From an uncultured Spirochaetaceae bacterium (GTDB lineage: Bacteria > Spirochaetota > Spirochaetia > DTKZ01), in contig CAZGUL010000002.1 of the NCBI GenBank assembly GCA_964529055.1, positions 282 to 26,113 of the forward strand: a stretch of 25,832 nt of DNA, given 5' to 3'. The notes under the pieces are model-generated. The model was not told the origin of the DNA. It saw nothing but the letters and a program-made list of their open reading frames with translations, and did no database searches. How positions within the stretch are numbered: position 1 is the first letter of the stretch; each line of letters starts with the position of its first letter. Below are positions 1 through 5,147 of this stretch, one piece after another. The position numbers and the translations under genes were made by a program.

Positions 1-615
1 GAATGCCTCAAGGAGGCCGACACGATCGCCTGCGAGGATACCCGGCACAGCCTGAAGCTGCTGAACCACTACGGCATCAGGAAGCCCCTGGTCAGCTGCC
101 ACGGCCACAACGAGGAAAAAAGCGCAGGCAGGATCGCCGCCCTCCTGACGGAGGGCAAAAACGTGGCCTATGTCAGCGACGCGGGCACCCCAGCCCTGAG
201 CGATCCCGGCTCCCGGCTCGTAAGGACGATGAAAGACCGCGGTTTCGACGTCGTTCCGCTGCCGGGGCCCTCCGCCTTCGCCGCCCTGCTCAGCGCCGCC
301 GGAATATTCGACAAGACCGTCACCTTCGAGGGCTTTCTTAGCCCCAAGGGAGGCCGGCGCCGGAGCCGCCTGCGGGAGCTTCTGGACCGGGAGGAGGCTT
401 TCGTGCTGTACGAATCGGTACACCGCATCGTCAAGCTTCTGGACGATATCGCCGATGCTGATCCCGGGAGGCATATCGTCGTGGGAAGGGAAATGACGAA
501 GGAATTCGAGGAATTCCTCGAGGGAACGGCATCGGATGTAAGAAAACGTCTGGAGGAAAAGGACGCGGTGAAAGGCGAATTTTCAGTCCTTGTCGCGGGC
601 AAGAAAAAGAGTTAA
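1..615 (+). CDS. rsmI: 16S rRNA (cytidine1402-2'-O)-methyltransferase RsmI, 5'-truncated by the window edge
   Basis: Frame 1 is open from base 1: ECLKEADTIACEDTRHSLKLL...VAYVSDAGTPALSDPG...PGPSA...FEGFL...YESVHR...RE(M)TK.FEE...KGEF, the typical RsmI motifs. Stop TAA at 613-615. Confidence 0.95.
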   Translation, partial: ECLKEADTIACEDTRHSLKLLNHYGIRKPLVSCHGHNEEKSAGRIAALLTEGKNVAYVSDAGTPALSDPGSRLVRTMKDRGFDVVPLPGPSAFAALLSAAGIFDKTVTFEGFLSPKGGRRRSRLRELLDREEAFVLYESVHRIVKLLDDIADADPGRHIVVGREMTKEFEEFLEGTASDVRKRLEEKDAVKGEFSVLVAGKKKS

Positions 616-639
616 AATTAGAGCGTTACGTGCCGATAT
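613..639 (+). promoter_or_regulatory. sigma28 (FliA) promoter for flgM
   Basis: TAAA (613-616) - 15 nt - GCCGATAT (632-639) matches the established sigma28 consensus TAAA-N15-GCCGATAA, 30 nt upstream of the flgM ATG. Confidence 0.85.
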
Positions 640-954: not shown

Positions 955-981
955 GGGTTCCTGTCAATCCATCTGCGGTTG

Positions 982-1015
982 AAAAGGCGGAGATATCGAT
1001 CTCTGCCTTTTTTTT
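982..1015 (+). terminator. Intrinsic terminator after flgM
   Basis: AAAAGGCGGAGAT-ATCG-ATCTCTGCCTTTT stem (one G-U pair) followed by a run of T. Confidence 0.8.
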
Positions 1016-1036: not shown

Positions 1037-2158
1037 ATGGCGGAATTATCCTTACAGCTGCCGGGCAAGGTTTTTTTCGGCAGCGACGTTCTCAACCTTG
1101 CCGGAACCCTGACGGCGGCGTACGGGACCCGCGCAATCCTCATCTCCGAGTACCTTCTCCACGAAGGCAGGCACATCGAAAAGGTGCAGGATATTCTCCG
1201 CAAGCGCGGCATCGAATGCATCGTGGTGGACGATATGGGGTCCCAGGGGCTCCGCAGGGACGCCGCCGAAGTCGTCGATTACGCGAAGGCTTCGCGGATC
1301 CAGGTCGTGATCGGCCTGGGGGGAATGAAGATCCTTTCCCAGGCGCGCAGGATCGCCTGTCTTTCGGCCGCGGGAGACGGCGCCGACCCGCATGCCCGGC
1401 CCCTGCCGTACATTGAAATCCCCACGGTGTTCCGGAATCCCCTTCTGATGTCCGACGCATATCTCGAAACGGACCCCGCGAGCAGGAGGCCCCGGATCGT
1501 CCGGGCGCCGGAGGGCCTCGTCCGGGTCGCCCTTGTCGATCCCAGTCTCACCGTCACCCTTTCCCCGAAGTACGCGGGGGCCCTCTTCCTTGATTCGGTG
1601 CTGGGCGCGCTGGAAGGCTACATCTCGGGAGGGGCGAATTTTCTGTCCGACGCCCTGTTTCTCGCGGCGCTGAAGCTCCTGGGGGAAGGCATCGACGACG
1701 CGGTTCGGGGAGTCAAGGACCTCCGTCCCCGGGTGAAGGCGTCCCAGGCGGGGGTCCTCTCCGCGATGGGGCTCGCGACATGCTCCTCAGGAGCCGGTTC
1801 GGCCCTTTCCTACGCCATCAACGCCCTTTTCGGGACACCCAAATCCTGGGTCGGCGCCGTGCTCCTTCCCCACATCATGGACCTGCACCTCGGTTCCCGG
1901 GCGGACAAGCTCGCGGAAACCGCGAAGGCCCTGGGAGAGGACATTTTCGGCCTCGGCACGGCAGACGCCGCGGCGTGCGCGCCGGTGCGGACGAGACGGG
2001 TCATCGCCCAGCTCGGCCTTCCCGGCCGGCTCCGGGACTTCGACCTGAAGCTCAGCGAACTCGTGGACGCCGCCGAGGCCGCCTCCGGCTTTGACCCGAA
2101 AAACGGCCTTCCCATGACGGTGGACGCCCTCTACGACCTGCTGAAACGGGCGTACTGA
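1037..2158 (+). CDS. Iron-containing alcohol dehydrogenase-fold protein with degenerate metal and NAD sites
   Basis: P.KVFFG, VIGLGG, IPT, DPSLT..L, D...ALEGY and LLPHIM landmarks of the Fe-ADH family; the catalytic His residues are not conserved (see findings). Confidence 0.85.
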   Translation: MAELSLQLPGKVFFGSDVLNLAGTLTAAYGTRAILISEYLLHEGRHIEKVQDILRKRGIECIVVDDMGSQGLRRDAAEVVDYAKASRIQVVIGLGGMKILSQARRIACLSAAGDGADPHARPLPYIEIPTVFRNPLLMSDAYLETDPASRRPRIVRAPEGLVRVALVDPSLTVTLSPKYAGALFLDSVLGALEGYISGGANFLSDALFLAALKLLGEGIDDAVRGVKDLRPRVKASQAGVLSAMGLATCSSGAGSALSYAINALFGTPKSWVGAVLLPHIMDLHLGSRADKLAETAKALGEDIFGLGTADAAACAPVRTRRVIAQLGLPGRLRDFDLKLSELVDAAEAASGFDPKNGLPMTVDALYDLLKRAY

Positions 2159-2165
2159 TTTTTCC

Positions 2166-2972
2166 ATGATCTCCCTGCGGAAATTCCTGTCCCTATCCCC
2201 CTCCACGCGGCTCCGCAAGACGGTCCGTCTCATCCACCGGTGGGAAGGCCTCCTGTCCGACGCGGGCCCGCCCCCGGAGGAGGACATCCGGGTCATGACC
2301 GGATATCTCGCGGCCATCCCGCCGGAAGAGCTTCCCTCCGGGGCGGAGGACTGCCGGGGGCGTCTCCTCCGGCTGCTTTCGCGTCCGGAAGACGCGGACC
2401 GCGAGGACATCAGGTGGGAACTCAATTCCCTGCGTCACCTTCTTTCCCCGGCCCTGGGCATGGAAACCGCCGACTGGGACTTGCATCCCCCGGCGGACGG
2501 GGCGGCGGTGCCCCGGAAAATCCTGCCCTGCCGGGTTTACGCGGACTGTATCCGGTCACCCTTCAATCTGGGCTCCCTTTTCCGCACCGCCGAATGTTTC
2601 GGAGTCGAGGAAATTCTGCTGGCACCCGGAGGCGCCTCGCCGGAGCACAGGCGGACGCGGAGGAGCGCCATGGGCAGCGTGGACATGGTGCCCCACCGGT
2701 ACGCGGAACCGGAGGAGCTGGAAGGCTTCGAGGGGGTTTTCGCGCTGGAAACGGGCGGAACTCCCCTGGAGGATTTCGTTTTTCCCGTCCGGGGCGTCTG
2801 CATCGTCGGTTCCGAGGAGCTGGGGGTGCGGGGCGGTTTGCGGGGGCTGGCGGCCGGGAGGGCCGGCATCGTCAGCCTGCCTCTCCGGGGGGCGAAAGGC
2901 TCCCTGAACGTGTCGGTGGCTTTCGGTATTCTGATGCACGCTTGGAGCCGGGCCCTTACGCGGGGTTCGTGA
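2166..2972 (+). CDS. TrmH/SpoU-family RNA methyltransferase with N-terminal extension
   Basis: SPFNLGSLFRTAECFG, IVGSEELG and GSLNVSVAFGILMH are the SPOUT motifs 1-3. Confidence 0.9.
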   Translation: MISLRKFLSLSPSTRLRKTVRLIHRWEGLLSDAGPPPEEDIRVMTGYLAAIPPEELPSGAEDCRGRLLRLLSRPEDADREDIRWELNSLRHLLSPALGMETADWDLHPPADGAAVPRKILPCRVYADCIRSPFNLGSLFRTAECFGVEEILLAPGGASPEHRRTRRSAMGSVDMVPHRYAEPEELEGFEGVFALETGGTPLEDFVFPVRGVCIVGSEELGVRGGLRGLAAGRAGIVSLPLRGAKGSLNVSVAFGILMHAWSRALTRGS

Positions 2973-3640: not shown

Positions 3641-3669
3641 AATATAATATATATAGAGAAGTGCGTCAA
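3641..3669 (-). promoter_or_regulatory. sigma70-type promoter for glutaredoxin-osmC
   Basis: TTGACG (3669-3664) - 17 nt - TATATT (3646-3641) in an AT-rich intergenic stretch. Confidence 0.7.
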
Positions 3670-5147
3670 GTCTCCTGCTCGAAGGCCTTCGAAAGTCGCT
3701 CGATGATCGCGGTGACCTGCTCCTCGGTCTGCAGGCGGAAATCCGAAAGAATGGACTTGTCGATCTGGTCGAAGGTGACGATCCTGTCGCCGTAATTCGC
3801 GAAAAAGTTGGCAAGGTAAACGGTGTGGACGACGCTCCGGCTTGTCAGGGGCGACGCCTGGGGGTCGTGGTGGAATTTGATGGAATGCACCAGGGGCTCG
3901 GGGAAATTCCATTTTTCCGCAATCATGCCGCCGATCTGGGAGTGGTTGAGCCCGCCGGTCATGTCCTCGAAGAGCTGTCCCGGAATGTTTTTCTCCCTGC
4001 AGAAACGGGTTATCTTTTCGATCAGCTGGGGATGCACGGACGAGAAGATGATTTTTCCCATGTCGTGCAGGATTCCGCCGGCGTAGACGTCGTCCAGAAC
4101 GGCCTTGTTGCGCAGGAAATGTTTCGCCAGCGTATAGGCGTAAAAGGCAGTCCTGTAGGAGTGCTTCCACAGCTCCTTGCGCTTCGCGTCGTCCCGACCG
4201 CCGAGGATCTTCTGGGTTCCGTAGGAGTAGAGCAGGTTCTTCAGCCCCCGGGTCCCCACCATTTTGACGGCCTCCACGATGTTGTCCACCTTCTTCGGAA
4301 GCATGAACTGGGCGGAGTTGACGAGCTTCAGGAGATCGGCGGTGAGCGCGGGGTCCATCGATATCTGACGGGCCATGTCCTGTATCTCGCTGTCAGGATC
4401 GGAGAGAATCTGCTGCAGGAAAACGATGTTTTCCGGGAAATTCGGCAGGCTGTCGATTTCCTCGACGATCTTCTTGCTGAGGATGTCCAGGGATTCCATC
4501 TTCACCTGCGCCGTGGGAACGGTTATCCGTGCGATCGTCTCGCCGTTCGCGGTGTCGATGTCGAACGCGTCCTCGTCCAGGCCGAGTTTTTTCAGCATCA
4601 GCACGAGGATCACGATGCCCAGCCCGGCGCCTTCCGAATCGTCCAGCACCGTGGAGAGAGCCTCTTCCAGGGAAGCGAAGGCCCGGGAGCGGGCGATCCT
4701 GTCGTACACCCGGATCTGCTCCTTCTGGAGTATCTCCACGTTGTTGCAGACGTAGAGGTTCAGCACCGGTCCCTTGGTCTGAAAAACGACTTTAATGTAC
4801 AGGTTCGCTTCCTTCTGGAGCTTGAGCCAGAATTCGATGTTGTCCAGGGTCTCGGTCTTGAAATTCTCCATGCCGGTCCTGTACTGCTGGTCGTTCGTTA
4901 TATCCAGGTTTTTCTGCTTGAAATAAACGCGCTTCGTGTTGGCCTTTTTCGCGTTGACCGCCAGTTCCCGCAGACAGTAGGCCAGGGGATCCAGCAGCTT
5001 CTCCTGCCCCATCTCCTTGAGAAAAATCCCCAGAACCTGTTCCAGATAGATTTCCGTATCGTGGGGAAGCGTGTAGCTCTTGATCGTCAAAGGGATGGAA
5101 TTTCGCGCCGCGTGAACGACTTTCGCTACATCGACTTCCTGAGGCAT
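3666..5147 (-). CDS. HDOD-domain signalling protein with N-terminal GHKL/HATPase-like domain
   Basis: C-terminal HDOD: LPNFP, DPALTADLLKLVNSA, GILHDMGK, HSQIGGMIAEKWNFP. N-terminal ELAVNAKKA (N-box) and EGAGLG (G-box). Confidence 0.85.
   Translation of the reverse strand: MPQEVDVAKVVHAARNSIPLTIKSYTLPHDTEIYLEQVLGIFLKEMGQEKLLDPLAYCLRELAVNAKKANTKRVYFKQKNLDITNDQQYRTGMENFKTETLDNIEFWLKLQKEANLYIKVVFQTKGPVLNLYVCNNVEILQKEQIRVYDRIARSRAFASLEEALSTVLDDSEGAGLGIVILVLMLKKLGLDEDAFDIDTANGETIARITVPTAQVKMESLDILSKKIVEEIDSLPNFPENIVFLQQILSDPDSEIQDMARQISMDPALTADLLKLVNSAQFMLPKKVDNIVEAVKMVGTRGLKNLLYSYGTQKILGGRDDAKRKELWKHSYRTAFYAYTLAKHFLRNKAVLDDVYAGGILHDMGKIIFSSVHPQLIEKITRFCREKNIPGQLFEDMTGGLNHSQIGGMIAEKWNFPEPLVHSIKFHHDPQASPLTSRSVVHTVYLANFFANYGDRIVTFDQIDKSILSDFRLQTEEQVTAIIERLSKAFEQET

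Follow-up and report, generated by a model that had tools for sequence, protein, structure and literature searches.

What does a spirochaete gain from a protein that has the fold of an iron-dependent alcohol dehydrogenase (Fe-ADH), carries neither the metal site nor the cofactor loops of that family, and is encoded directly behind flgM? The question is raised by a stretch of 25,832 nucleotides from an uncultured Spirochaetaceae bacterium, analysed here at its full length and referred to as the window, in which the following features lie one after another:

1 to 615, forward strand: rsmI-type methyltransferase gene, its 5′ end cut by the window, which heads a conserved rsmI, flgM, ADH-like order (PF00590, 95 bits)
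613 to 639, forward strand: sigma-28-like promoter sequence TAAA-N15-GCCGATAT, whose TAA is the rsmI stop codon
670 to 954, forward strand: flgM, coding for the anti-sigma-28 factor, the conserved upstream neighbour (PF04316, 34.3 bits)
981 to 1015, forward strand: hairpin plus U8, a candidate intrinsic terminator or attenuator (dG -19.4 kcal/mol)
1037 to 2158, forward strand: degenerate Fe-ADH-fold gene, hereafter the ADH-like gene, of 373 aa with no internal stops
2166 to 2972, forward strand: SpoU/TrmH-type methylase gene, 7 bp downstream of the ADH-like stop (PF00588, 77 bits)

The original prediction, which placed a full-length and intact protein of the Fe-ADH fold between flgM and a TrmH-type gene, holds on both counts. 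Both Pfam halves of the family exceed their gathering cut-offs on the window protein (PF00465 with 64.2 bits versus 31.3, PF25137 with 72.7 bits versus 27) and, together with the two-domain fold, assign it to the Fe-ADH family. An AF2 model that took 63 homologues as input reached a pLDDT of 90.5 and a pTM of 0.90, and Foldseek matched this model to 8zrl, 3bfj and 1rrm with a TM of 0.89. The model superposes over its full length on methanol dehydrogenase, DhaT and FucO (TM 0.85-0.90), and 3w5s, 3jzd and 3iv7 are also among its structural matches. The same two-domain fold is found in the canonical type III Fe-ADHs (FucO, DhaT, Bacillus methanolicus Mdh and Zymomonas ADH2; cd08551), with which the window protein has 21-24% identity and the motifs G95-G96, D168-P169, E193 and LLPH in common. 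Unlike these enzymes, it lacks the three His, the substrate His, GGGS, D101 and the TGSE loop. None of the NCBIfam equivalogs scores more than 97 bits on the protein, against cut-offs of 423-951, the best being lactaldehyde reductase with 97 bits against 523.

It has been established that the metal site of the Fe-ADHs consists of an Asp/His/His/His set, residues 242, 246, 330 and 357 in ADHFE1 (PMC5125639), as the original prediction had also taken it to be. The corresponding positions were mapped by HMMER alignments to the solved Fe-ADHs 8zrl, 3bfj and FucO 7qls, and by family alignments. By this comparison D-A-L-T-H has become D186-S-V-L-G190, G-L-V-H-A-M-A-H has become G252-A-G-S255-A-L-S-Y259, and P-H-G has become P268-K269-S270, with Lys at the position of the PHG His. 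Where a functional Fe-ADH has its four ligands, the window protein therefore presents D186, G190, S255 and K269; the Asp is the sole ligand kept, and no substitute His, Cys or Asp was found at the ligand positions in the HMMER or family alignments. The cofactor side is altered as well, as GGGS..D..K reads G95-G96-M97-K98..S101..R104, with I, V or M at position 97 across the clade described below, and the TTAGTGSE loop reads T130-V-F-R133-N-P-L-L137. The position of the substrate-contacting His (FucO His267) is taken by Y259. In 25 intact Fe-ADH representatives H/H/H, GGGS, D101, G133, G135 and E137 are present in 100% at the compared positions, an invariance that argues against alignment noise as the source of the substitutions. 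All of the predicted changes, including the loss of the three His ligands and the conversion of GGGS to GGMK, are thus borne out by the structure-based and family alignments.

These changes bear directly on catalysis. With a loop Gly exchanged for Arg, and the Gly-Ser of GGGS for a bulky residue followed by Lys or Arg, NAD(P) should no longer fit in its normal pose, and we consider it likely, judging from the sequence, that the window protein is not a dehydrogenase. The earlier claim that it cannot work as a normal alcohol dehydrogenase, which stands as a conclusion by comparison, is strengthened in that the His triad and both cofactor loops, GGGS and TGSE, are missing from the whole clade, and in that the source genome keeps five canonical Fe-ADH paralogues, with GGGS in 5/5 and His at every ligand position in 4/5. 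A survey of 2016 stated that the GGGS pyrophosphate-binding loop is common to all FeADH subfamilies (PMC5125639); the clade is an exception to this universality.

The window protein is one member of a clade of about 100 clusters at 50% identity, all without the His triad, and it is this dead-enzyme clade of a well-known fold that is new here. An exhaustive profile search over 1.84 billion representatives returned 94 full-length 50%-identity representatives, each with 0/3 His, and intact GGGS/His-His-His proteins first appeared in the clade profile search at about 252 bits. A word-indexed search gave about 64 full-coverage clusters at 90% identity, followed by a sharp drop to intact Fe-ADHs at no more than 26% identity. 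On a FastTree tree of 153 sequences, unrooted and with SH-like support only, one state change splits the degenerate from the intact proteins. Within Spirochaetota, 84 of 301 genomes contain a match above 263 bits, a level that no intact protein attains, and the weaker best matches from 12 further families (Leptospira- and Brachyspira-type genomes included) are all degenerate; the 287 of 301 genomes that match the clade profile take in some canonical-only genomes and are no count of the clade. The His triad is absent in 44/44 distinct orthologue ORFs, two of which retain one His. In family f21 (L036, L038) the first ligand is still a His (GIEVMAHACEAY), and PSTHGICH takes the place of the TGSE loop; this cleft, as read from sequence, may be intermediate or independently remodelled.

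All named clade members, including the most divergent ones, are spirochaetes. Exact-sequence look-ups identified orthologues in T. denticola, T. socranskii, L. interrogans, L. biflexa and B. murdochii, every one of them labelled 'iron-containing alcohol dehydrogenase' in the databases, and the hundreds of entries that give this name to the ADH-like protein are almost certainly misannotated. The phylum scan found no counterpart in Borrelia-sized and T. pallidum-sized genomes, whereas L. interrogans and T. denticola have one. TDE_1915 of PMC12724145 is a different Fe-ADH. Literature searches on FlgM, spirochaetes and ADH, on Fe-ADH pseudoenzymes and on locus tags returned nothing on this protein, no Fe-ADH pseudoenzyme adjoining flgM, and no published link between the ADH-like protein and FlgM.

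A gene that has lost its catalytic residues while intact paralogues persist in the same genome might be a decaying copy on its way to becoming a pseudogene. This explanation has next to no probability, and it is effectively refuted by the conservation data: the gene is full-length and intact in every genome examined, its product has a confident fold prediction, a single branch sets the degenerate proteins off from the intact Fe-ADHs, and Leptospiraceae, Brachyspira and Treponemataceae all have orthologues. Moreover, dN/dS for close orthologue pairs (dS 0.5-1.1; distant, saturated pairs were left out) was 0.023, 0.053, 0.15 and 0.15, which indicates purifying selection and answers the check that the original prediction had proposed. 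With catalytic residues lost, purifying selection and phylum-wide orthologues, the ADH-like clade fits the operational definition of a pseudoenzyme as far as sequences can tell. Two loci of family f4 (L024, L043) have an ADH-like open frame that continues for 289 nt on the upstream side, running over flgM in a different frame (521 aa), which is probably a chance open frame and not a fusion.

The cleft itself has been remodelled but stays conserved. Conservation across the clade is higher in what used to be the active-site segments than in randomly placed blocks (0.531 versus 0.393, sd 0.045), a value reached in 0.06% of 5000 random placements. The chemistry of these segments is reversed: Ser98 has become Lys or Arg in 64% of the members, Gly133 Lys or Arg in 77% (Arg in 76%), and the last ligand His (position 269) Lys or Arg in 72%, while the invariant acidic residues Asp101 and Glu137 have been lost, together with G135. 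On the other hand, Asp186 is kept in 61% and is Glu in a further 21%, Glu193 is kept in 93%, and position 38, an acidic residue contacting the adenine ribose, is E or D in 92%. The new residues are not uniform: Leptospira has the cleft segments AYGSFES, PTKPLLGN and NLDIFQ, Brachyspira has PTILGSLS and AVNKSM, the PKSW and RNP replacements are not kept phylum-wide, and conservation reaches 85% or more at no positions other than structural Gly, Pro and Asp. Due to this drift of the replacement residues, a single ligand common to all orthologues is doubtful. We infer that the cleft forms a pocket for an anion or an adenine nucleotide, the latter plausible because of the retention of an acidic residue at the ribose-binding position of E38, or else that it is held shut by salt bridges, with Lys and Arg in the place of the metal (K269 and R133 with D186 and E193).

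We regard a metal-free enzyme on the model of the maleylacetate reductases as the main rival. According to this explanation, the protein would still be an enzyme with metal-independent chemistry, with K269, R133 and Y259 newly recruited for catalysis or for the binding of an anionic substrate. The maleylacetate reductases (cd08177; GraC 3w5s, PcpE) have the same fold and, as in the clade, a positively charged cleft; they are active without metal (PMC5125639) and use a positively charged channel in which His and Lys residues are essential (PMC5125639; PMC5741723). In the clade, likewise, no region is more conserved than the cleft, which has become richer in basic residues; a Tyr equivalent to His267 is found in the active human ADHFE1 too (PMC5125639), and in family f33 (L045) an aldehyde dehydrogenase gene lies directly upstream of the ADH-like gene. 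However, the clade reverses the maleylacetate reductase pattern. In those enzymes the Asp ligand is replaced by Asn or Arg while the His (LHHKLCHTLGG) and GGGS are kept and NADH is used, whereas the clade mostly keeps the Asp and has lost the His and the cofactor loops, with GGGS, D101, G133, G135 and E137 all gone. Furthermore, the candidate catalytic residues are not kept in Leptospira, Brachyspira and other orthologues, and family f33 apart there is no recurrent metabolic partner gene, the recurrent neighbours being regulatory or flagellar. For these reasons we consider the enzyme explanation unlikely. The narrower identification of the window protein as a maleylacetate reductase was rejected, as D186 is kept and the signature region reads GAGSALSYAIN.

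A regulatory role has a precedent within the family. ErcA of Pseudomonas aeruginosa, covered by NF041833 ('alcohol dehydrogenase-like regulatory protein'), is an Fe-ADH-family member with a regulatory, non-metabolic role; Hempel et al. reportedly concluded in 2013 that this role is regulatory rather than metabolic. ErcA takes part in the regulation of ethanol oxidation in proteobacteria and is not encoded next to flgM, and the window protein, with 81.5 bits against the NF041833 cut-off of 550, is not an ErcA. It is the nearest functional precedent and no relative at family level. The suggestion of the original prediction that the fold has been repurposed as a ligand sensor or scaffold fits the remodelled, conserved cleft and the sigma-switch and flagellar neighbourhoods; on the other hand, the maleylacetate reductases are enzymes of this fold that work without a metal.

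The most informative clue to the role of the ADH-like protein is the position of flgM, which the original prediction had mentioned as incidental. When the coordinates of the two genes, taken genome by genome from two scans of the phylum, are compared, flgM is found no more than 2 kb from the ADH-like gene in 49 of 78 genomes and in 18 of 27 families, counts that overstate the number of independent events since related genomes are not independent. The spirochaete FlgM/sigma-28 module, represented in T. denticola by TDE0201/TDE2683, is thus the genomic partner of the ADH-like gene in most lineages, and rsmI is syntenic in most loci. Three gene orders recur:

Context A: rsmI, flgM and the ADH-like gene, with or without spoU behind it; most families
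Context B: genes for DUF4921, a permease, the ADH-like protein, GAF-GAF-SpoIIE and Cu-oxidase_4, in that order; families f24, f37, f50, f54 and f55
Context C: flhA, flhB, fliR and fliQ on the other strand, 83 bp, then the ADH-like gene and spoU; the T. denticola-type genus

Both Leptospiraceae loci that were retrieved have the rsmI, flgM, ADH-like order, and the published annotation of L. biflexa agrees, with FlgM as LEPBI_I1327 (ABZ97437) and the ADH-like protein as LEPBI_I1326 (ABZ97436). In 10 loci flgM and the ADH-like gene are 4-22 bp apart; elsewhere the distance is 40-190 bp. In context B, 10-115 bp separate the ADH-like and phosphatase genes. The five-gene order of this context was seen at L046, L050, L065, L066, L069, L071 and L072; its permease is of the AEC type (PF03547) and its Cu-oxidase_4 protein is PgeF/YfiH-like. 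As a separate observation, a gene coding for GHKL-like and HDOD regions (window positions 3666 to 5147, reverse strand) is a conserved convergent neighbour of the rsmI, flgM, ADH-like, spoU block, found in class-level families at L042, L052, L053, L031, L026, L033, L023 and L037 (phmmer E 1e-173 to 1e-22), and adds another gene of anti-sigma-like or signalling type to the flgM block.

The distribution of the two proteins across genomes adds to gene order. Flagellin is present in 299 of 301 Spirochaetota genomes, including families f5, f26 and f42, which have neither FlgM nor the ADH-like protein. Family f5 consists of six genomes of 1.0-1.8 Mb and, to our knowledge, Borrelia is without sigma-28 and FlgM, which fits the pattern of this family. 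At least two genomes (G145 and G102) depart from this co-absence, with a good or weak FlgM match and no ADH-like protein. In T. denticola flgM and the ADH-like gene are not adjacent, and some lineages have unrelated neighbours, namely GH31, TPR and 7TMR-HD genes. At L049 (family f56), a divergent bactofilin gene is found, with an AraC-type regulator gene downstream of the ADH-like gene.

Besides the window, a sigma-28-type site (TAAA-N14-16-GCCGATAA-like) stands just 5′ of flgM in 12 further distinct loci (L056, L057, L010, L020, L021, L025, L026, L031, L037, L047, L052 and L053), the whole set including a Leptospira locus and family f3, and about 16 of the 22 sense-strand sigma-28-like matches in 334 kb cluster directly upstream of flgM. 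FlgM has recently been shown to function in T. denticola (PMC9481697, PMC12655853), whereas a review of 2025 regards the Leptospira FlgM as unproven; Pfam FlgM matches on ORFs of 107-108 aa support, jointly with the sigma-28-type sites, a real FlgM in Leptospira. An own sigma-28 site was sought in the lineages where the ADH-like gene has left flgM and was absent except at L049, where a sigma-28-like site is found 71 nt upstream of the ADH-like gene.

Between flgM and the ADH-like gene of the window, a gap of 82 bp contains the hairpin at 981-1015, which has a z of -4.5 and is equalled in folding by 0/200 shuffles; a consensus terminator scan did not call it. A hairpin plus T-run recurs in most loci whose gap is 40-190 bp (L010-L038, L051, L052), and the structure after flgM may be a conserved attenuator setting the ratio of flgM to downstream transcript. 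In the window, transcripts that run past the flgM terminator would be the main source of expression for the ADH-like gene and for the SpoU methylase gene, which is probably co-translated with it.

Given such tight coupling, the ADH-like protein might serve the SpoU/TrmH RNA methyltransferase encoded behind it, or RsmI, as a non-catalytic partner, in the way that dead enzymes support other RNA methyltransferases. Only 7 bp lie between the stop and start codons in the window, in L039, L023 and L026 the two genes are separated by 2 bp or overlap, and the pair of ADH-like and SpoU genes persists in T. denticola-type genomes despite separation from flgM. The SpoU/TrmH domain starts near residue 123, and the N-terminal 120 aa or so are without a Pfam match, leaving a region that might serve such a partnership. 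Nevertheless, SpoU adjacency is confined to the class-level families f1, f2, f4 and f8 and is missing from all other orders retrieved, whereas the ADH-like protein is phylum-wide, and we hold a methyltransferase partnership to be quite improbable.

Several of the observations above also weaken a regulatory reading: the strong terminator-like hairpin behind flgM in the window, the lack of an own sigma-28 site after separation from flgM (L049 apart), the FlgM matches of G145 and G102, the unrelated neighbours of several lineages, and the conserved order with rsmI, which could be partly historical. They might instead point to a protein that is conserved for a structural or housekeeping purpose, without catalysis and without a flagellar link, and whose position behind flgM would be inherited gene order. 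The frequency of the hairpin between the two genes, the missing promoters, the GH31, TPR and 7TMR-HD neighbours and the presence of rsmI, itself a housekeeping gene, in the same block are all in line with this explanation. However, the flgM order persists from Treponemataceae to Leptospiraceae, while the tightly coupled SpoU gene is kept within one class only, and the gaps of 4-22 bp to flgM in 10 loci likewise speak against mere inheritance. Moreover, the two other independent neighbourhoods again consist of flagellar or sigma-switch genes, and the ADH-like protein and FlgM are co-absent in three families. A housekeeping role without any tie to the flagellum is therefore, in our estimation, also unlikely.

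Weighing these points, it is conceivable, with a chance approaching even, that the window protein has a binding or regulatory role outside redox chemistry, connected with the FlgM/sigma-28 circuit. A role in that circuit, or in sigma-factor switching more broadly, is tentatively proposed on the basis of gene order and co-absence. The gene would be the catalytically dead descendant of an iron-dependent alcohol dehydrogenase that has kept the two-domain fold, can no longer hold metal or NAD(P) in the normal way, and would act by binding rather than by redox chemistry, with a cleft that would either take up an anionic ligand, such as an adenine nucleotide, or be shut internally. From gene order, the protein would act in the circuit controlling sigma-28 through FlgM, as a sensor or adaptor modulating FlgM or FliA; where the gene of a GAF-PP2C phosphatase adjoins, the phosphatase could be the target instead. 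The most specific version, a nucleotide- or metabolite-sensing adaptor that would bind FlgM or FliA, or the GAF-PP2C phosphatase in some lineages, as a spirochaete-specific and hitherto overlooked part of the FlgM/sigma-28 checkpoint, is rather speculative.

Motility is central to the biology and virulence of spirochaetes, and how these bacteria control sigma-28 is only beginning to become clear. This makes the ADH-like protein, which is conserved, unstudied and, in most of the phylum, encoded immediately behind flgM, a concrete candidate for the regulator that is missing. Should the proposed role be true, the expression of late flagellar genes in Leptospira, Treponema and Brachyspira would be tied to metabolic state through this protein.
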